Of a DNA stretch of 64,000 bases, positions 48,815-57,798 are shown piece by piece. The notes beneath the pieces were generated by a model. It was not told the origin of the DNA. It did not search any database and saw only the letters and a program-made list of their open reading frames with translations. Position 1 is the first letter of the stretch; each line of letters begins with the position of its first letter. The stretch is from Bacteroidetes bacterium MED-G17 (GTDB taxonomy: Bacteria; Bacteroidota; Bacteroidia; NS11-12g; UBA9320), in assembly GCA_002457675.1 (NCBI GenBank), contig NTKK01000004.1, forward strand, positions 27,666 to 91,665, read 5' to 3'. The translations under genes and the position numbers were made by a program.

Positions 48815-51463
48815 TTGTTTACAAACTTGAACTGGTCTTTAGTTAATTTGAATAGTTCATTGGCAAAAGTAATAAGTAAAAAAGAAACCCCTTTGATGCG
48901 CCAGTATCGCGAAATCAAAGAAAAATATCCGAATACTATTCTTCTTTTTAGAGTGGGTGACTTTTATGAAACGTTTGGGAAAGATGCTATAATTGCTTCT
49001 GAAGTCTTGGGTATTGTACTCACTAAAAGGGCAAATGGTAAAGCTTCACATGTAGAGTTGGCTGGATTTCCTCACCATTCATTAGATGTTTATTTACCAA
49101 AACTTGTAAAAAATGGATATCGAGTAGCTGTTTGCGATCAATTAGAAGATCCAAAAAAAACAAAGACAATTGTCAAAAGAGGCGTTACAGATATGCTTAC
49201 GCCAGGTGTGGCAACCCATGACCAGGTGATTGATGCTAAGAAAAACAATTACTTATGTTCATTATATCAAGTTGACAAGCAATTAGGGCTTGGTTTTGTT
49301 GACTTTTCTACTGGAGAATTTCAAATCACTCAAGGTCAATTAGATACCATCGTAACACTGCTTCATGCCATAAATCCGGCAGAAATTTTGGTAAGTAAAA
49401 AACAGCAAAACTCTATAAATGAACTGTTAAAGGAGAAATACTATTTATATGCCATTGAAGACTGGTTTTTTGATACCGATTTTGCCAAAGACAAAATTTT
49501 CCATCACTACAAAGTCAATAATCTAAAAGGTTTTGGTATTGAAGATTTGGATCTAGCTTTACTTCCTGCAGGAGCAATATTGCACTATTTTCAAGAGACC
49601 CATCAAGAACATGTAGGCCATCTTCATGCTTTGAGTAGATTAAATTATGATGACGTTTTGTGGTTGGACCAGTTCACGGTTAGAAATCTTGAGTTAATTG
49701 ATTCAGCTCATCCTGACGGTTTAAGTCTATTAGATATTTTGGACAAATGCAGCAACCCGATGGGTTCTAGATTATTAAAAAAATGGCTGTTACGCCCTCT
49801 GGTTGATCTTAATGAAATTCAAAAAAGACAAAAAATTGTTTCTTTATTTTTCTCTAAACAAGAATTTGAGAGTCAAACTAGTTCACTACTAAGGAATATC
49901 GGTGATTTAGAGAGAATGGCTGCCAAATTGGCCTTAAGAAAAATTGGTCCACGAGAATTAAAACAAATGGCCCAGTCAATTAACCATGTTGTTGAGCTCG
50001 AGTCGATATGTACAAAAGAATTATCAGCCGCTTCATTTCCACTTCGAAGTGAAAAAACCATAAAACTGGTTAAAGAAATAGAAACCTATCTCGTTGAGGA
50101 ACCTCCTGCCCTTTCTACCAAAGGAGACTTAATTCAAGATGGAATTGATGAAAAACTAGATCAGTTTAGGGACATCAGAAAAAATGGCAAAGAGCATCTA
50201 ATCAATATCCAGCAAAAAGCTATTGAAGAAACAGGTATAATCTCTTTAAAAATCGGGTTCAATAATGTATTTGGGTATTATTTAGAAGTAACAAATGTTC
50301 ACAAGGACAAAGTGCCTTCAAAATGGATAAGAAAGCAAACACTTACCAATGCAGAAAGATATATTACGGAAGAGCTAAAACAATATGAACAGAAAATATT
50401 GAATGCAGAAGAACATATACTCGATTTAGAAAAGAAAATTTATGACGCGTTTATAGAGCGTATACAATCCTATGTTCCAATCGTCCAAAATCTATGTTTT
50501 TACTTGGCCCAATTGGATTGCTTAAGATCTTTTGGCCATTTGGCGTTTACAAATAAATATACTTGCCCTAAACTTAAAAAAAGTCAATCTCTTTCTTTTA
50601 AAAAACTCCGACACCCTGTAATCGAGACACAATTGCCTAGCAATGAAAGCTATATTCCAAACGATCTACATTTAAACAAGGAAAACCAACAAATCATTGT
50701 TCTTACGGGCCCAAATATGTCAGGAAAATCTGCCATCTTAAGACAAACAGCTTTAGCAGTCATCATGGCACAAATAGGATGCTTTGTACCCGCTAATGAA
50801 GCAGAAATAGGAATAGTAGATAAAATATTTACACGTGTTGGTGCGAGCGATAATATTTCTCAAGGAGAATCAACTTTTATGGTTGAAATGCTAGAGACAT
50901 CAAGTATTTTAAATAATTTATCTTCTGATAGTCTGATTTTATTAGATGAAATTGGAAGAGGCACCAGTACGTATGACGGTATCAGTTTGGCTTGGAGTAT
51001 TGCTGAATATTTGCACCAATGTGCTGAAAAACCAAAAGTTTTGTTTGCTACACATTATCATGAGCTAAACCAATTGGAGAAAAAACATACGGGCATTGTT
51101 AATTTCCATATCAGTTCAAAAGAAATGCAGTCTCAGGTCGTTTTTCTCAGGAAATTGACAAGGGGCGCTAGCAACAGTAGTTTTGGTATTCATGTAGCAG
51201 CAATGGCAGGAATGCCCAATTCTGTTCTGCAAAGAGCACAAGCATTATTAAATGAATTAGAAAACGAAAGAGGAAAAAACCAATTGTTGGGGTTAACTTC
51301 CAAAAGTTTTGACAAGGCAATCCAACAAATACCACTTTTTGAAAATCAAAATAAAGAGTGGAAAGCACTAGCTAAACAGCTTTCTCTTATAGATACAAAT
51401 ACGATAACGCCTATTGAAGCATTACTTAAACTAAATGAACTTAAATCAATTATTAAGAATTAG
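48815..51463 (+). CDS. mutS: DNA mismatch repair protein MutS
   Basis: ETPLMRQYREIKEKYPNTILLFRVGDFYETF (mismatch-binding domain) and C-terminal Walker A GPNMSGKS. 882 aa. An in-frame TTG at 48860 (giving MAKVISKKETPLM...) is a plausible alternative start. Confidence 0.92.
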   Translation: MFTNLNWSLVNLNSSLAKVISKKETPLMRQYREIKEKYPNTILLFRVGDFYETFGKDAIIASEVLGIVLTKRANGKASHVELAGFPHHSLDVYLPKLVKNGYRVAVCDQLEDPKKTKTIVKRGVTDMLTPGVATHDQVIDAKKNNYLCSLYQVDKQLGLGFVDFSTGEFQITQGQLDTIVTLLHAINPAEILVSKKQQNSINELLKEKYYLYAIEDWFFDTDFAKDKIFHHYKVNNLKGFGIEDLDLALLPAGAILHYFQETHQEHVGHLHALSRLNYDDVLWLDQFTVRNLELIDSAHPDGLSLLDILDKCSNPMGSRLLKKWLLRPLVDLNEIQKRQKIVSLFFSKQEFESQTSSLLRNIGDLERMAAKLALRKIGPRELKQMAQSINHVVELESICTKELSAASFPLRSEKTIKLVKEIETYLVEEPPALSTKGDLIQDGIDEKLDQFRDIRKNGKEHLINIQQKAIEETGIISLKIGFNNVFGYYLEVTNVHKDKVPSKWIRKQTLTNAERYITEELKQYEQKILNAEEHILDLEKKIYDAFIERIQSYVPIVQNLCFYLAQLDCLRSFGHLAFTNKYTCPKLKKSQSLSFKKLRHPVIETQLPSNESYIPNDLHLNKENQQIIVLTGPNMSGKSAILRQTALAVIMAQIGCFVPANEAEIGIVDKIFTRVGASDNISQGESTFMVEMLETSSILNNLSSDSLILLDEIGRGTSTYDGISLAWSIAEYLHQCAEKPKVLFATHYHELNQLEKKHTGIVNFHISSKEMQSQVVFLRKLTRGASNSSFGIHVAAMAGMPNSVLQRAQALLNELENERGKNQLLGLTSKSFDKAIQQIPLFENQNKEWKALAKQLSLIDTNTITPIEALLKLNELKSIIKN

Positions 51464-52685
51464 TTACATAATATTTTTTTTAATAAATTTTAATTCAGTG
51501 TGCAGTCAAAATTTTTGGATAACGGATTATGCACATGATATGGTTGGTTTGAAAAAATACCATGAAATGGGCTATACAGGTAAGGGGGTGACAATTGCTG
51601 TTTTAGACAACGGATTTTACCGGGTTGACTCTATTGCAGCATTTGCCAAGCTCAGAGATCGCGGGGGCATAATAGCTACATTCGATGTGATTGCTAATGA
51701 CAGCAATGTTTTCGATCGAGGTAATCATGGCCTTTATGTTTTATCAATAATGGCAGGTTTTGTCAATGATTCATTTAACGGGAGCGCACCAAACGCAGAT
51801 TATATTTTAGTTCATACCGAAAACGCTTTAAAAGAAGTGCATCAAGAGGAATATAACTGGAAAACTGGTTCAGAATGGGCAATTGAAAAAGGTGCCGACA
51901 TAATTAATAGTTCACTAGGATATTCACTTTTTGACACCTTAGAAGGCGATTATTCCTACCAAGAAATGAATGGTAAATCTACTGTAGTAACCTTAGCGGC
52001 TGAAGCTGCTTCGAAACAGGTGCTGGTTGTAAATAGCGCTGGAAATAGTGGAAATAATTCCTGGTATCATATCACTGCTCCGTGTGATGGACCTTCCGTA
52101 TTTTGTATTGGCGCCTTAGATTCATTTGGAAGAGTAGCAGTTTTTTCCTCACGAGGTCCTACAGCAGACGGGAGAATTAAGCCAAATGTTTCTGCAATGG
52201 GCGCTAATGTGGCATTTATTAACAGTCGAGGTCGTTTTCAGATAGGAAGTGGAACCAGCTTCTCCTCTCCTCTTATTGCTGGTATGATGGCGTGTTTGAA
52301 ACAAGCTTTTCCAAACGCCAGCAATGAACTTCTTATGCGTTCGGTAGAGCAAAGTGCTAGTCATTACAATAACCCGAATGAGGCTATTGGATATGGGATA
52401 CCAAATGTATTATTGGCTGACTCCATTATCAAAAGCACATTGGCTTCAATCACAAACAATTCTAAAACTTCTACTCCTTTTATTTTTCCTAATCCAAGTA
52501 AAAACAAATTGTTTGTAGAACACAACTATCCAATCTTTTTACTTGAGTTGAAAAATGTTTTGGGCGAAATAATCATGTTTAGTCATGAAAATAAACTTGA
52601 CATAACAATGCTTCCAAAAGGTCAATATTTTTTACATATAACCGATAGTAGACAGAATTTTTGGGTGAAAAAGATCCAAAAGTAA
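51435..52685 (+). CDS. S8-family subtilisin-like serine peptidase with T9SS C-terminal sorting domain
   Basis: Catalytic triad motifs VAVLDNGF (Asp), HGLYV (His), GTSFSSP (Ser). C-terminal CTD FIFPNPSKNKLFVEH...LPKGQYFLHI. Confidence 0.85.
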   Translation: MNLNQLLRISYIIFFLINFNSVCSQNFWITDYAHDMVGLKKYHEMGYTGKGVTIAVLDNGFYRVDSIAAFAKLRDRGGIIATFDVIANDSNVFDRGNHGLYVLSIMAGFVNDSFNGSAPNADYILVHTENALKEVHQEEYNWKTGSEWAIEKGADIINSSLGYSLFDTLEGDYSYQEMNGKSTVVTLAAEAASKQVLVVNSAGNSGNNSWYHITAPCDGPSVFCIGALDSFGRVAVFSSRGPTADGRIKPNVSAMGANVAFINSRGRFQIGSGTSFSSPLIAGMMACLKQAFPNASNELLMRSVEQSASHYNNPNEAIGYGIPNVLLADSIIKSTLASITNNSKTSTPFIFPNPSKNKLFVEHNYPIFLLELKNVLGEIIMFSHENKLDITMLPKGQYFLHITDSRQNFWVKKIQK

Positions 52686-52688
52686 GAG

Positions 52689-53687
52689 TTAATATTTTTT
52701 TGAAATAAAAGAAGTATCTGTCAAAGCCTTCAAAAAATCTATTAGGTTCTTTTTTTCTTCAGGATTAATGTCAAAAGCTTTAATAAAGTGGCTTTTGTTT
52801 GGATGAATTTTTCCACCAGATGCGTAGTGATCAATTACCGCTTCTAAAGTTTCTATGCTTCCATCATGCATATATGGAGAGGTAATGGCAACATTTCTTA
52901 AGCTTGGAACTTTAAACTTGTCCCTATCTTGCTCTAAATAAGTTATTCGCATCCGACCTGAATCATTGGGATATTTTAATCTGTACAACCCATTATTCTG
53001 CAATGAGAAATTGCTAAAATTTTTGCCATTATGGCATCTTGAACAATACAAATCCTGAAAAAATAATTTCATCCCCTTCTTTTGGGACGAATTAAGTGCG
53101 TCTAAATCACCCGTAATGTACTGATCAAATTTTGACTGGTTGCTAATCAAAGTTCGCTCAAAACAGGCAATAGCATGTGTAATGACGAATGGATTGGGGT
53201 CAATTTGGTATGCCTTGTTACTTAAATGTAGATAGCTTACATTTTTTTTCATTCGCTCAGCAATCAAGCGAAGGTCAAAGTCAAATTCAGCGTGTTCTTG
53301 TACTGGCACCAATACCTGCATTTCTAGAGACGGAACGCCTCTATCCCAGTGCAAACCTGAATCTTGATCAACCACATTAGCCAAACTAGGCGCATTTCTT
53401 CCAACTTGCTGCTGCCTAATACCTACACTTTTTGCTTTCCCATCTGTAAATGCTTTTGTGGGTAAATGGCAGGTAGCACAAGATAGTGAATAATCTCTAG
53501 ACATTATGGAGTCAAAAAATAACCTTTGCCCCAAAAGCACTTTTATAGAATCAGATGAATTTTCTCTATAATATTGTGAGAAAAAGCTTTCGTTTGGTTT
53601 AAGAGGTATAAAACAATATTCTTCGTAATTATAGAAAGTAAAAAAAACAAGTAAACCTAAGAATCCTGCTTTAAGTTTTGCGACCAT
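52689..53687 (-). CDS. di-haem cytochrome c peroxidase / MauG-family protein (MbnH-like by gene context)
   Basis: Two CxxCH haem-binding motifs (CATCH, CSRCH) about 145 aa apart, plus the CCP-family motif HWDRGVPSLEMQ. N-terminal hydrophobic segment. It is the last gene of the copper-cluster operon. Confidence 0.8.
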   Translation of the reverse strand: MVAKLKAGFLGLLVFFTFYNYEEYCFIPLKPNESFFSQYYRENSSDSIKVLLGQRLFFDSIMSRDYSLSCATCHLPTKAFTDGKAKSVGIRQQQVGRNAPSLANVVDQDSGLHWDRGVPSLEMQVLVPVQEHAEFDFDLRLIAERMKKNVSYLHLSNKAYQIDPNPFVITHAIACFERTLISNQSKFDQYITGDLDALNSSQKKGMKLFFQDLYCSRCHNGKNFSNFSLQNNGLYRLKYPNDSGRMRITYLEQDRDKFKVPSLRNVAITSPYMHDGSIETLEAVIDHYASGGKIHPNKSHFIKAFDINPEEKKNLIDFLKALTDTSFISKKY

Positions 53688-53699
53688 AATTGGACACTT

Positions 53700-54683
53700 T
53701 TACTTTTTCACCATAAACTTTTTGCTAACCAAAAATGCCTTGTCTGACTCAAAAACAGCTAGGTAAGTTCCTTGGGGCAACTCCATATTTATGAAATAAT
53801 TACCTGCATTAGAAAGATCATTCTCAAATTTAAGAATCTTTCCTTGCATGTCTATTACTTTTAGATTTACACGATTTTCATAAGGAAATTCATAAAAGAT
53901 GGTAGGTGCATATGGCAGTCCATAATCAAAAACAACATGCCCGCTTCCCTGTTGTGGGTGTTTTTTAAGCGATGCAGTTGCTTCTGTATCAAAAACTTTA
54001 AACTTATTAGTATTGAACATAATCGTTTCGTTAAGCCAATATACACCATGATTATATCCTGCTTCAGCTAAGTCAATGTCTTTTAGCCAATCAGCAATAT
54101 TTACATATAGCTCGATTTCTGTGTCCTTACCATTTATTTTTCCTGTGGTTTCAATTTTATTTACTGGAGTTAAATATTCGTCATTGGCTGTAACATGAAA
54201 TTCAAATTTTTTGTCAAGGAGTCCATCCTTGTCATCGTCTATGCTTCCTTCAATTACCAAAAATCGATAGCCAGCAGCCCATCCCCAATGCATCGAAGGA
54301 TTCTTTAATGCCAAGGGGTGCGATTCATCATAAATAGCTGGGTTTAAGTGGTTTTTTTCAACATCAACGCCAACATCAAACTTTAAACCTTGTAATTTAT
54401 CTATTGTTAAACTGTTTAAATTATAATTAGAAATATTGGCACTTGCGAGCACATAATGGTCTTTTAGTGGAATACTTTGCCCATTGTCTTGAATCTCAAA
54501 ACCAGAAAGATAATATTGTACTCTGGTAATCTGCAAAGTCCTGCCAGAATTGTCGTAATACTTTTGATCGTAAGAGAAAGGCGTGCCATTCCACTCATGA
54601 TTTAACTTTAGGGTGATGTTTCCTTGGGCAAAAACGTTTGACGATAGATAAAGGAAAAGTTGAATAAAAAATAAATATTTCAT
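53700..54683 (-). CDS. secreted hypothetical protein (candidate MbnP-like partner of the adjacent peroxidase) with T9SS-type C-terminal domain
   Basis: Signal peptide MKYLFFIQLFLYLSSNVFAQ. No catalytic motif recognised. It lies 12 nt upstream of the di-haem peroxidase gene in the same operon. The C-terminal ~70 aa (...VIDMQGKILKFENDLSNAGNYFINMELPQGTYLAVF...) look like a T9SS CTD that lacks the usual PNP start. Confidence 0.45.
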   Translation of the reverse strand: MKYLFFIQLFLYLSSNVFAQGNITLKLNHEWNGTPFSYDQKYYDNSGRTLQITRVQYYLSGFEIQDNGQSIPLKDHYVLASANISNYNLNSLTIDKLQGLKFDVGVDVEKNHLNPAIYDESHPLALKNPSMHWGWAAGYRFLVIEGSIDDDKDGLLDKKFEFHVTANDEYLTPVNKIETTGKINGKDTEIELYVNIADWLKDIDLAEAGYNHGVYWLNETIMFNTNKFKVFDTEATASLKKHPQQGSGHVVFDYGLPYAPTIFYEFPYENRVNLKVIDMQGKILKFENDLSNAGNYFINMELPQGTYLAVFESDKAFLVSKKFMVKK

Positions 54684-54688
54684 AATTT

Positions 54689-55933
54689 TTAATGTTTAAT
54701 TATTTTATGTGTTGATATAGTTTGGTCAAAATGAAGTTGTAAAATATATACGCCGTCCGGAAAACCAGTCAAATCAAAGCTTTTCTGAAAAGATTCATAG
54801 CTTTTAAGCTTATTACCATCAATACTGATTAAAGTGGTTTTTTTAACTTGATCAACCTTTATTTTACCCAGCGTAATTTCAAAAATATCTGAAGTTGGAT
54901 TTGGAAAAATCCGCGCGTGTTGTTTTACATGTTTTTCAACAACAGGAAGGTCTATATGTACAATCCTTATTTTCTGCACACCCAATACTTTGCTATTGTT
55001 TAAGTCAAAATATTCGACCAGTATAATACCACTATCAAGTAGGTTATCTAAAGATTCATTCGATAGTAATATATCATATCGTTCACCTGGCATTACTTCT
55101 AAAATATTTACGGTATCTACGCCTTCAGGAATGGGTCTACCGTCTGTACTTACCACCCGGGCAAGAAATCCACTTGGAAATATAAATCGATTACCGCAAT
55201 TCCCAATATTGGCAAAGTGTAACAGGCTGTTGTAGTGGCGACGGGGATAGTCTGAAAAAACTTCAATGTGATCAAACAAAAAATCACTGTTTGACTTACC
55301 ATTTAACATTAAATATTGGGGATGATAGTCGGGAATTGATATTTCTGTATGGTTTGAATCGTATGCGTGTTGAATAAATTCTTTGGTATGCCAATGAGTG
55401 TCTATTTCAGATGTGAGAAAAGTGTACTCTTTACCCTCATATGAATAACCATAAATTTTGCCATATAATTTGGGATGGATAACAATAACTCCATACATAC
55501 CAGCCTGAACATGTATAGGTGAAACTACATGACAGTGGTATAAATATGTACCAGGGTGTTTCGCTACAAATTCATATTTACCTTGCTCGAGATGCTTGAC
55601 ACTAAAAGACAATTCTGGCACACCGTCATTGGCTTGATTAGCATCCAAACCGTGTAGATGAATGGTGTGGGGTGCTCCTTGAGAATAATTATTCAGGATG
55701 AGCGTCACAGAGTCTCCTTCTCCAAATTCTAATAATGGCCCTGGGATAGAAATAGATTGACCCAAAAGCTCTGTATAACCCATAAGGGCTATTTTGTTCC
55801 CGTCAGGCAGCTCAAATTGTGGTTCAAGGTCGATTTTTGAAAACAACTGTTTAACAACCCTTTTCTGCGCATATAAACCCTCAAGCATTAGAAAAACATA
55901 AAAAATGACTAGAAAAAATCGCGATTGTCTCAT
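54689..55933 (-). CDS. cupredoxin / multicopper-oxidase-domain protein with T1 copper site motifs and T9SS C-terminal sorting domain
   Basis: Signal peptide. The first domain carries HTIHLHG (HxxHxHG, residues ~89-95) and YHCHVVSPIHVQAGM (HCH-x5-H-x3-GM, residues ~133-146), i.e. MCO motif-3 and motif-4 equivalents in one domain. A second cupredoxin-like domain has THWHT. C-terminal CTD RIFPNPTSDIFEITL...GVYILQLHF. Confidence 0.7.
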   Translation of the reverse strand: MRQSRFFLVIFYVFLMLEGLYAQKRVVKQLFSKIDLEPQFELPDGNKIALMGYTELLGQSISIPGPLLEFGEGDSVTLILNNYSQGAPHTIHLHGLDANQANDGVPELSFSVKHLEQGKYEFVAKHPGTYLYHCHVVSPIHVQAGMYGVIVIHPKLYGKIYGYSYEGKEYTFLTSEIDTHWHTKEFIQHAYDSNHTEISIPDYHPQYLMLNGKSNSDFLFDHIEVFSDYPRRHYNSLLHFANIGNCGNRFIFPSGFLARVVSTDGRPIPEGVDTVNILEVMPGERYDILLSNESLDNLLDSGIILVEYFDLNNSKVLGVQKIRIVHIDLPVVEKHVKQHARIFPNPTSDIFEITLGKIKVDQVKKTTLISIDGNKLKSYESFQKSFDLTGFPDGVYILQLHFDQTISTHKIIKH

Positions 55934-56802
55934 GGATCAATACTTAAAGTGGTAAACATCCCCTTTGGATATTTTTTATTCGCTCTCAGTGCAGCCAAAT
56001 TATGATCATGTACAGGGTACTCACCTGGCTTGTCAGGTATGAGTTGTAAAATCATGGAGGCCATTGGATGGATTGGCAAGGTATCTTTTTTACGCCCAAC
56101 ATGGTTTGGAAATTTACTCGAATAAACAATTTCAACATGATAGCCATGAAAGTGTAGAGAGTGTATACCCAATCCTGTATTGGTTATATGAATAACCAAG
56201 GTATCTCCCACTGAACCAATTACTTTGGCGTCTGAATCTATATTGATATCCGGATTACTTTTTCCATTAATGGTGAATAGGTTTGGTTCATACAGAGCCC
56301 AATCTACAGATGTCCCTTCGCTAAGCTGAAAATTCAATGCATATTGATGGTCTTTTAGATTCCAATAAAAGGACTTATGTGAATGGTTTTTTACAACCAA
56401 CATCCCAGACAAACCAAAATAGGAATTGACTGGGAAATCATACGGATCGAAATAAATAAAAGCACCTTCCAAAAGGCGTTTTACCTCCACGAAGGCAGTA
56501 TCTTTGGGTAGAATTTCAATAGGACTTTTACTCAAACCTTGAATCTGAAATTGGTGAACATTATTGGTTCTGTTATGAATCAATAGTGTCAAGGTATCTC
56601 CAACTCTTGCGTTTAAAATTGGGTTTTCTTGCCTAAAATGATTGGTTAGATTATAACTTACATAGGGTAACTTTTCTCCATTGACTGTGAGCATAGAATC
56701 TTGGATGACAAATAAGTTGTAATGAACAATCGTTGATTGCGCACAGATAGAGTAAAATACTATGAAAATGGGTAAATACCACTTAACCTTATTCATGTAC
56801 AA
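55930..56802 (-). CDS. two-domain cupredoxin / multicopper-oxidase-like protein lacking the T1 cysteine
   Basis: Signal peptide. Domain 1 has NHSHKS (HxH). Domain 2 has GIHSLHFHGYH (HxxHxHG) and YPVHDHNLAALRANKKYPKGM, where the canonical HCH is HDH and the downstream His is absent. No T9SS CTD. 4-nt overlap with the downstream gene. Confidence 0.65.
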   Translation of the reverse strand: MYMNKVKWYLPIFIVFYSICAQSTIVHYNLFVIQDSMLTVNGEKLPYVSYNLTNHFRQENPILNARVGDTLTLLIHNRTNNVHQFQIQGLSKSPIEILPKDTAFVEVKRLLEGAFIYFDPYDFPVNSYFGLSGMLVVKNHSHKSFYWNLKDHQYALNFQLSEGTSVDWALYEPNLFTINGKSNPDINIDSDAKVIGSVGDTLVIHITNTGLGIHSLHFHGYHVEIVYSSKFPNHVGRKKDTLPIHPMASMILQLIPDKPGEYPVHDHNLAALRANKKYPKGMFTTLSIDP

Positions 56803-57490
56803 TTAGCTTTTGAGATGCCAACACATGAGCATCAAGTAAAAATTGTACGAAATATACACCTGGCTTCCATGAAGCAAGGTCAACACGAACACTCGGCTCG
56901 GATAGGTTGTGATTCTCGAAAACCTTTTTACCAGTTAGATCAAATATTACAAAGGATGTAAATTTATGATTTACAGGAATTTCAATGAAGTTAGATGCAG
57001 GATTTGGAAAAACTACAAAATCTCTAGCTGTCTGTGATTCATGAATGTTTGCGTTTTTAGCATTTATTATCCATGTGGCAGTATCTCCATCTTTAGGATT
57101 TTTTTTATTGAAAACACGCACTCTGTAGATGGATTCTTTCTCGCTATCCATAGGATTGACTGTGAGACGTACATAAGAATTTTCCTCACTTGTAGAGTTG
57201 GGGTTCATATCGAACATCTTGCCTTTTTCTAAAATAGAACCCAAGCATAAACCATATACACAAACCAAACCATCCCAATCACTCGGGATAGTACTTTCTA
57301 CGACTTCTATGCTTAACGATAGGGTATCTTCACGATTTTTTTTCACTTGTTCAATTTTCATCTCGGTATAAGTATTTTTTGCTATCACCTGAATGAGTGT
57401 ATCATTCGGATACCAAGAGAAAGACACTTGTGAAAATAAAATAAAAGAATTTCCTAAGACAAAAATTAAAACGGCAAACTTTTTAAACAT
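56789..57490 (-). CDS. secreted hypothetical protein with T9SS C-terminal sorting domain (first gene of the copper cluster)
   Basis: Signal peptide from the internal Met (MFKKFAVLIFVLGNSFILFSQ). C-terminal CTD FVVFPNPASNFIEIPVNHKFTSFVIFDLTGKKVF...GVYFVQFLLD. 14-nt overlap with the next gene. Confidence 0.5.
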   Translation of the reverse strand: MFKKFAVLIFVLGNSFILFSQVSFSWYPNDTLIQVIAKNTYTEMKIEQVKKNREDTLSLSIEVVESTIPSDWDGLVCVYGLCLGSILEKGKMFDMNPNSTSEENSYVRLTVNPMDSEKESIYRVRVFNKKNPKDGDTATWIINAKNANIHESQTARDFVVFPNPASNFIEIPVNHKFTSFVIFDLTGKKVFENHNLSEPSVRVDLASWKPGVYFVQFLLDAHVLASQKLIVHE

Positions 57491-57547
57491 ACCGACTCGA
57501 ATATACAAAAAATATTGAAAATGCATTCATCAATATTCTTTTCATTT

Positions 57548-57578: not shown

Positions 57579-57651
57579 GCGAAAGTAGCTCAGCTGGTAG
57601 AGCATCACCTTGCCAAGGTGGGGGTCGCGAGTTCGAATCTCGTCTTTCGCT
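57579..57651 (+). tRNA. tRNA-Gly (anticodon GCC)
   Basis: GCGAAAG acceptor pairs with CTTTCGC. D-arm GCTCAGCTGGTAGAGC. Anticodon stem-loop TCACC-TTGCCAA-GGTGG has GCC at positions 34-36. T-arm GCGAGTTCGAATCTCGT. No encoded CCA. Confidence 0.85.
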
Positions 57652-57679
57652 CTAACAATGGGTTAGCCCATTTTTTATT

Positions 57680-57763
57680 GCCCTGGTGGTGGAATTGGTA
57701 GACACGCAGGACTTAAAATCCTGTGGCCTCACGGCCGTGCGGGTTCAAGTCCCGCCTGGGGCA
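57680..57763 (+). tRNA. tRNA-Leu (anticodon TAA), class II with long variable arm
   Basis: GCCCTGGTGGTGGAATTGGTAGACACG...CAGGA-CTTAAAA-TCCTG (anticodon TAA)...long variable arm GTGGCCTCACGGCCGTG...GCGGGTTCAAGTCCCGC T-arm. The acceptor stem pairs with two G-U wobbles. Confidence 0.85.
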
Positions 57764-57798
57764 CTTTCTCAGGTCTTTTTTGTTTCTTTGCTAGTAAG

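Follow-up and report, generated by a model that had tools for sequence, protein, structure and literature searches.

Two-domain multicopper oxidases (MCOs) are regarded as homotrimeric and as ancestral to laccases and ceruloplasmin. In the type C members of this group, each chain of about 300 amino acids (aa) forms two cupredoxin domains, with the type 1 (T1) copper site in domain 1 beside HxxHxH and HCH motifs, HxxHxHG and HDH motifs in domain 2, and a trinuclear cluster held between domains 1 and 2 of different chains; all twelve ligands lie on one chain and the homotrimer contains three clusters. The copper nitrite reductase NirK has the same two-domain fold, belongs to a trimeric family and likewise carries T1 in domain 1 and its catalytic copper between subunits, the latter being a mononuclear type 2 (T2) site formed by HxxDxH and one His from the neighbouring subunit. 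Throughout the MCO superfamily the motifs HxHG, HxH and HxxHxH, together with HCHxxxHxxxxM/L/F, supply a single T1 site plus eight cluster His (PMC7036934). The location of the T1 site sets the type of a two-domain oxidase, type C having it in the N-terminal domain (PMC13151041), and the eight cluster ligands come from two neighbouring monomers, each contributing four (PMC13151041; doi 10.64898/2026.07.28.741245). Here, two adjacent cupredoxin genes, termed A and B, are described from a 64,000-nucleotide (nt) stretch (the window) of contig NTKK01000004.1 of Bacteroidetes bacterium MED-G17. The pair appears to be a widespread and undescribed variant of the type C two-domain MCO in which the ligands are split between two subunits. 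On the sequence evidence set out below, it is probable that A and B are diverged type C paralogues with complementary ligand losses, working only as a heteromer.

The two subunits, their ligand motifs and the C-terminal sorting domain of the type IX secretion system (T9SS) on B are located as follows, all positions being those of the window.

55930..56802, minus strand: subunit A, 290 aa (probably 288), secreted, two cupredoxin domains, Sec-type signal, without a T9SS sorting domain
56143-56163, minus strand: A motif HSLHFHG, with H217 and H219 as predicted trinuclear-cluster ligands
56002-56010, minus strand: A motif HDH, with H265 and H267 as predicted trinuclear-cluster ligands
54689..55933, minus strand: subunit B, 414 aa, secreted, two cupredoxin domains followed by a T9SS C-terminal sorting domain
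55649-55669, minus strand: B motif HTIHLHG, with H89 as a predicted T1 ligand and H92 and H94 as predicted cluster ligands
55496-55540, minus strand: B motif YHCHVVSPIHVQAGM, with C134, H141 and M146 as predicted T1 ligands and H133 and H135 as predicted cluster ligands
54692..54910, minus strand: sorting domain (T9SS type A) at the C-terminus of B, residues 342-414 (PF18962 and TIGR04183)

Translation recovered these open reading frames (ORFs) and motifs on the minus strand as quoted in an earlier note on this DNA, which had been made from the letters alone. Tandem cupredoxin domains were recognized in B through Cu-oxidase_3 (residues 61-155, E 1e-15) and in A through its fold match. The Pfam match in A was Cu-oxidase_2 at residues 175-270 (E 1e-10). 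The sorting domain of B was matched at residues 342-412 by PF18962 (E 5.4e-9) and by TIGR04183 at 35.2 bits against a cut-off of 23, and Pfam found none in A, in agreement with the earlier note. A Cu-oxidase match in domain 2 of the window B fell under its cut-off (13.7 bits against 21), but PF00394 was recorded for most relatives.

The best solved-structure relatives of both A and B identified by phmmer were the type C enzymes 3G5W, the blue copper oxidase of Nitrosomonas europaea, and 2ZWN, the metagenomic laccase mgLAC. Domain 1 of B aligned with domain 1 of these enzymes, HTIHLHG corresponding to HTIHWHG and YHCH..H..GM to the same pattern, and domain 2 of A aligned with their domain 2, IHSLHFHG corresponding to IHAMHSHG and VHDH to FHDH in 2ZWN and IHDH in 3G5W. 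The His motifs of both proteins thus map onto MCO copper ligands, ligand identities being assigned from motif alignment and general knowledge of oxidases. When an AlphaFold2 model of A (predicted local distance difference test score (pLDDT) 88, predicted template modelling score (pTM) 0.84) was used in a fold search, 3G5W and 2ZWN were again the best matches, with template modelling (TM) scores of 0.74-0.76 and E 1e-20 over 288-293 columns. Since the match extends over the whole length of the model, A is a full two-domain protomer.

Because HDH also occurs in domain 2 of 2ZWN and 3G5W, where its Asp stands at the T1 Cys position just as in A, it is the normal motif of the class and not an altered HCH. 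The reading of HDH as a modified motif 4 was therefore mistaken. A does lack a T1 site, with Asp at the Cys position of domain 1 in 66 of 66 A relatives. Two further points lapsed on comparison: the two extra residues after HCH in B are no oddity, the x5 spacing being the same in 3G5W, and the HSH of A (residues 141-143) is not conserved among relatives and cannot be counted as a ligand motif. Domain 1 of B does hold both of its motifs, with a T1 Cys/His/His/Met set and four cluster His that are invariant in relatives. Taken singly, neither chain has the four MCO motifs, B presenting HxxHxH and HCHx5Hx4M only and A presenting HxH and HDH only; all four are present in A and B together. T1 is confined to the N-terminal domain in B, as in type C enzymes, and is missing from A, and neither protomer has the four plus four cluster His of a type C chain.

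The relationship between the two chains was apparent from their profiles, which aligned collinearly over 249 columns (hhalign probability 98.5%, E 2.9e-15) and identify A and B as paralogues. When 66 A and 70 B relatives were aligned together, the ligand positions compared as follows.

Positions of H92, H94, H133 and H135 of B: His in 70 of 70 B relatives; Q/E/A/R, K/Q, Y/H/F and P in A
Positions of H217, H219, H265 and H267 of A: His in 66 of 66 A relatives; I/V, S/A/M, E/D and F/V in B
T1 Cys position (C134 of B, D119 of A): Cys in 70 of 70 B relatives; Asp in 66 of 66 A relatives

Domain 1 of A and domain 2 of B contain no cluster ligands, and these separate ligand losses are what is novel about the pair. 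As each chain holds exactly the cluster half absent from the other, neither can form a trinuclear cluster or a NirK-type T2 site as a homo-oligomer, and with the ligands divided in this way only the A/B interface can hold the cluster. In B, H89, C134, H141 and M146 are invariant and make up a full blue-copper T1 set, HTIHLHG is invariant both in 20 and in 70 relatives, and H133 and H135 flank C134 as the predicted electron path. In A, H217, H219, H265 and H267 are invariant among relatives; H214 occupies what was once a T1 position and is replaced by Arg in some of them.

Each subunit has additional invariant residues. In the ligand-free domain 1 of A, H83 (56554-56556) and D119 (56446-56448) are invariant and occupy the former T1 His and Cys positions, and D119 is retained in distant A-like proteins too. 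Three His of B are specific to its family and invariant, H114, H126 and H182, of which H114 and H126 are not in 3G5W by the available alignments, H182 having been checked less closely; all three could make up a binding site for substrate or metal close to T1.

The resemblance of B to NirK raises the question of whether A and B might instead be separate homo-oligomers with reduced copper sites, B being a NirK-like protein with T1 and a partial or mononuclear site and A a small bi- or mononuclear copper protein, with an operon shared through a common pathway only. We consider this very unlikely. Copper nitrite reductase is indeed the top NCBIfam match of B (E 6.9e-17), and NirK chains are close structural matches. 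However, the NirK model TIGR02376 scored B at 61.8 bits and A at 19.4 bits, far under the cut-off of 296.3. Unlike NirK, B carries the oxidase pattern HxxHxH, with His where the catalytic Asp of HxxDxH would be, and its domain 2 has F, V or I where the T2 site of NirK borrows a His from the neighbouring subunit. Separate homo-oligomers would also leave unexplained the exactly complementary losses, as well as the complete two-way adjacency, the hitchhiker pairs and the fusion described below.

Relatives of A were found in 300 species-level genomes, mostly of Crocinitomicaceae, Parvicellaceae, Vicingaceae, Fluviicola, Lishizhenia and Saprospiraceae, and 80 loci from these genomes, with 82 copies each of A and B, were examined for gene order and motifs. 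B follows A as the next gene on the same strand in 80 of 80 loci, the gap from the A stop to the B start being mostly -4, -1 or +2 nt; in the window the two codons overlap as ATGA. In a reciprocal sample of 80 metagenome loci chosen through B, A lay just upstream in 70, eight had no upstream flank, and two were A-B read-throughs, so that the genes were linked in all 72 B-selected loci with enough flank (70 upstream, two joined). HxH is found together with H[D/E]H in every one of the 82 A copies, the middle residue of the latter being D in 79 and E in three, and none has HCH, which shows that HDH in the window is due neither to chance nor to a sequencing error. Among the B copies, HxxHxHG is present in 82 of 82 and HCHx5Hx4M in 81.

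That the split reflects a sequencing or assembly error, a strain mutation or a decaying pseudogene pair has a negligible probability and is refuted by these data, given that the motifs are kept in more than 80 species-level genomes and are identical among identical copies from independent assemblies; both ORFs are moreover intact and the model of A is confident. A single apparent fusion does stem from a frameshift. In P0194, seen in two loci (L113:3020-5095 and L152:3026-5101), A and B seem to be joined in a protein of 689-692 aa, with the signal peptide of B kept internally, and a run of eight G shifts the frame before the last 12 residues of A. The two copies are 99.8% identical between independent metagenome assemblies, and the shift may be real, slippage or a shared error. 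Because it lies in the run of eight G, P0194 was dropped as evidence for fusion. MAFFT stacked the A family onto the B half of its 689-aa form whatever mix of sequences was supplied.

Variants of A with a long N-terminal extension, the only A relatives long enough for a sorting domain, were observed in three Bacteroidota metagenome-assembled genomes (L076:3748-7233, L079:280-3765 and L080:4295-7852). In these, the A module makes up the last 290 aa of a chain about 1160 aa long, and the partner B has 610 aa. The 850-aa N-terminal part of the L076 protein had no Pfam match, and a guess that it is a PQQ-type propeller was set aside as unsupported.

Split pairs are not confined to Bacteroidota. 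A profile search of 1.84 billion representative sequences returned 880 A relatives, and 130 of the best 150 are A-like half-site proteins; the few that have HCH, P0386, P0389, P0402 and P0403 among them, are single-chain enzymes complete in themselves. All seven distant A-like loci with readable flanks have a B-like neighbour, downstream of A in six and upstream in one; domain 1 of these partners has HxxHxH together with YHCHx5Hx4M/L, and their domain 2 lacks HxH altogether. In four of the non-Bacteroidota loci (L163, L165, L166 and L168), visual inspection of the sequences shows that A has a signal for twin-arginine translocation (Tat), the four signals containing SRRDFV, TRRGML, TRRQFL and KRRDFL, and that B begins directly with its mature domain, an in-frame stop 1-31 codons upstream precluding any N-terminal extension. 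A Tat signal on A with a signal-less B implies that the complex forms before export.

A genuine in-frame fusion was found in P0383, a 931-aa protein from an NCBI assembly, in which A is followed by B behind a single Tat signal. The whole of A is matched by residues 30-378 (E 2e-14), and B by residues 419-652 (E 3e-26). HxH motifs at ligand positions (HIH at 278, HPH at 346, HWH at 482 and HCH at 521) occur only in the parts corresponding to A domain 2 and B domain 1, and the sole remaining HxH, at 477, abuts the domain-1 motif of B. The order of A then B in the fusion and in most operons would fit protomers adjacent in the ring, with the cluster at the junction of A domain 2 and B domain 1, if the analogy with two- and six-domain oxidases holds. 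A different architecture is seen in P0371 (745 aa), one chain in which a complete type C module with all four motifs is combined with a half-site module of the A type and a cupredoxin at the C-terminus, which shows that mixed assemblies of complete and half-site modules exist too.

The contention of the earlier note that neither chain has a full ligand set, and that the pair supplies enough His for an inter-subunit cluster with a single T1 site, is thus well supported, with eight such His, by ligand mapping, complementary conservation, adjacency, the Tat pairs and the fusion. The note had also allowed for one catalytic subunit and a copper-chaperone-like paralogue, which we judge less likely than the heteromer. 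With B as the sole enzyme, A would be a non-catalytic paralogue for copper delivery or assembly, binding copper through its four His and passing it to B, or a transient stabilizer of B, and would form no part of the active site. Pseudo-enzyme paralogues often act as chaperones, A has lost its T1 site and domain-1 ligands, and the operon encodes further copper-binding proteins. Yet B alone would possess four of the eight ligands and a domain 2 without His to complete the cluster, and the four His of A stand at the exact cluster positions of domain 2 in 2ZWN and 3G5W and are invariant across phyla. The P0383 fusion and the signal-less B partners favour a stable rather than a transient complex. 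Catalysis by B alone is, on balance, unlikely.

In the proposed heteromer, domain 2 of A would pack on domain 1 of B as neighbouring protomers do in homotrimeric two-domain oxidases, creating an eight-His cluster of T2 and type 3 (T3) copper at the interface of B domain 1 and A domain 2, together with one T1 site. Substrate would be oxidized at the T1 copper of B, electrons would pass through Cys134 and His133/His135 to the cluster, and O2 would be reduced there to water. The two genes would be translationally coupled and both products carried into the periplasm by Sec. From there A, lacking a sorting domain, would exit the cell bound to B; as only B has the sorting domain, an enzyme active at the cell surface would need A to be carried along by B. 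The interface geometry, copper content and activity are those we infer for the pair by analogy with the described enzymes. As a guess, the neighbouring genes suggest a role in copper handling, for instance by oxidizing Cu(I) or some other metal at the surface of the cell.

Several considerations weigh against the heteromer as proposed. That the eight His converge at one site is presumed solely by homology. Since A and B cannot alternate around a ring of three, at least one interface would be non-catalytic, with AB, A2B, AB2 or larger assemblies being possible. We know of no precedent for the co-export of a partner protein through the T9SS. The copper role is drawn from neighbour genes only, and the pair MbnP and MbnH, described below, is present in only about 30% of loci. 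Finally, a heteromeric split-ligand two-domain oxidase was not found in the open-access literature, and an earlier description elsewhere is possible. One candidate precedent, the 'heterotrimer' of Nmar_1354, was rejected as it is a proteolytic ααα' form of a single gene product.

Comparison with other systems places the pair closest to the type C MCOs, from which it differs in having the ligands split over two paralogous chains and a T9SS sorting domain on B. Ceruloplasmin resembles the proposed assembly in holding one trinuclear cluster in a ring of cupredoxin pairs whose other interfaces are ligand-free, and rat ceruloplasmin was among the fold matches of the A model (rank 42). However, it is one six-domain chain with T1 sites in even-numbered domains, in contrast to the two-domain chains here (four domains in P0383), where T1 lies in domain 1 of B, and the resemblance is one of design, not membership. 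The manganese oxidase Mnx (MnxG with MnxE/MnxF) is a hetero-oligomeric MCO, as proposed for A and B, but MnxE and MnxF are small, unrelated to the oxidase and supply no cluster ligands. In having the RR signal on one subunit only, the non-Bacteroidota pairs resemble Tat hitchhikers such as NxrAB and dimethyl sulfoxide (DMSO)-reductase-family enzymes, a mechanism described previously (PMC3578206); no description of Tat hitchhiking by an MCO was found in the open-access literature. The window pair differs from these in that A and B both have Sec signals, the asymmetry residing in the T9SS sorting domain.

A broader view, which we hold about as readily as we doubt it, is that split-ligand A/B pairs constitute a widespread and undescribed class of obligate heteromeric MCOs with one cluster per A-B unit, intermediate between homotrimeric two-domain oxidases and single-chain, one-cluster oxidases of the six-domain ceruloplasmin kind, in which B rides on the Tat signal of A in some phyla and A rides on the T9SS domain of B in Bacteroidota. 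P0383 illustrates that fusions with four domains have already arisen. A cluster that can form only between two paralogous subunits would be a new quaternary design for this oxidase family and a natural example of symmetric multi-site enzymes turning into asymmetric single-site ones. Expressed on their own, hundreds of genes annotated as 'multicopper oxidase domain-containing protein' would then give inactive products, a point of relevance to enzyme discovery. The pairs further provide cases in which cofactor-dependent co-export could be tested, for Tat and possibly for T9SS; if A does ride on B, this would be the first partner-protein co-export through the type IX system. In marine Bacteroidota, a surface oxidase would be linked to the poorly understood copper proteins MbnP and MbnH.

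A and B belong to a run of five close-packed minus-strand genes extending from 57526 to 52689, the other three of which, one with an immunoglobulin (Ig)-like fold, are listed here in order of transcription.

56789..57526 (probable start 57490), minus strand: upstream gene, the first of a conserved trio, Ig-like beta-sandwich with a T9SS sorting domain
53700..54683, minus strand: MbnP-family copper-binding protein with a T9SS sorting domain (PF20243, E 3.9e-33)
52689..53687, minus strand: MbnH/MauG-like di-haem peroxidase, the MbnP partner (PF03150, E 6.8e-44)

PF18962/TIGR04183 sorting domains were therefore found in B, the upstream 245-aa protein and MbnP, and not in A. In nearly every Bacteroidota locus of the set L001-L160, A is immediately preceded by an ORF of about 235 aa. 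The upstream protein has two invariant Cys in the pattern W-x3-[LV]-C-x4-C and a GDT motif; WDGxxCx4C was detected in about half of these ORFs by regular expression, and a sampled alignment of the rest showed the same two Cys. The window protein of 245 aa had no family match beyond its sorting domain, and a fold search returned only generic Ig-like structures (TM 0.2-0.3). Possible roles are those of a third subunit, an anchor or a chaperone for copper.

Downstream of B lie two genes of the same families as MbnP/MbnH (and MopE/CorA with their di-haem partners), with a WxW-bearing domain encoded beside a MauG-like di-haem peroxidase; they are neighbours rather than parts of the oxidase. MbnP matched PF20243 at 115 bits (cut-off 27), missing the NCBIfam equivalog cut-off (46 against 140), and its WxW is WGW at residues 133-135 (54279-54287). 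MbnH scored 150 bits with PF03150 and 254 bits with TIGR04039, under the equivalog cut-off of 363. In known pairs, MbnH acts on one Trp in the WxW of MbnP to give kynurenine, which helps copper binding (PMC11951088, PMC3621798). Searching MbnP against solved structures with phmmer gave no match. Unlike known MbnP, the window protein has a T9SS sorting domain, and given this domain it is probably displayed on the cell surface or released from it. Where the two genes follow an A-B pair in related loci, some have two MbnP copies. No paper linking MbnP/MbnH to an MCO was found in the open-access literature.

In other genomes (for example L012:5660-6190 and L015:5938-6303), the trio is accompanied by HYC_CC_PP genes (18 loci), CopZ-like heavy-metal-associated proteins (10 loci), PorZ (eight loci), an RND pump (five loci) or a heavy-metal P-type (P1B) ATPase (four loci), none of which is present in the window, and SCO1 and MerR genes also lie near pairs. 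Copper handling is suggested by the MbnP/MbnH, CopZ-like, HYC_CC_PP, P1B-ATPase, SCO1 and MerR neighbours.

The annotated starts of two genes are likely too early. Translation of A likely begins at Met3 (56796), the database copy having 288 aa, and that of the upstream gene likely at Met13 (57490). At the far end of the operon, an S8 subtilase with a T9SS sorting domain (51435-52685, plus strand) converges on the last gene; it is a further secreted T9SS cargo and shows no apparent connection with the oxidase. On the opposite strand, immediately upstream of the operon, lie genes for tRNA-Gly(GCC) (57579-57652, plus strand) and tRNA-Leu(TAA) (57680-57764, plus strand), so that only about 50-90 nt remain for the operon promoter.

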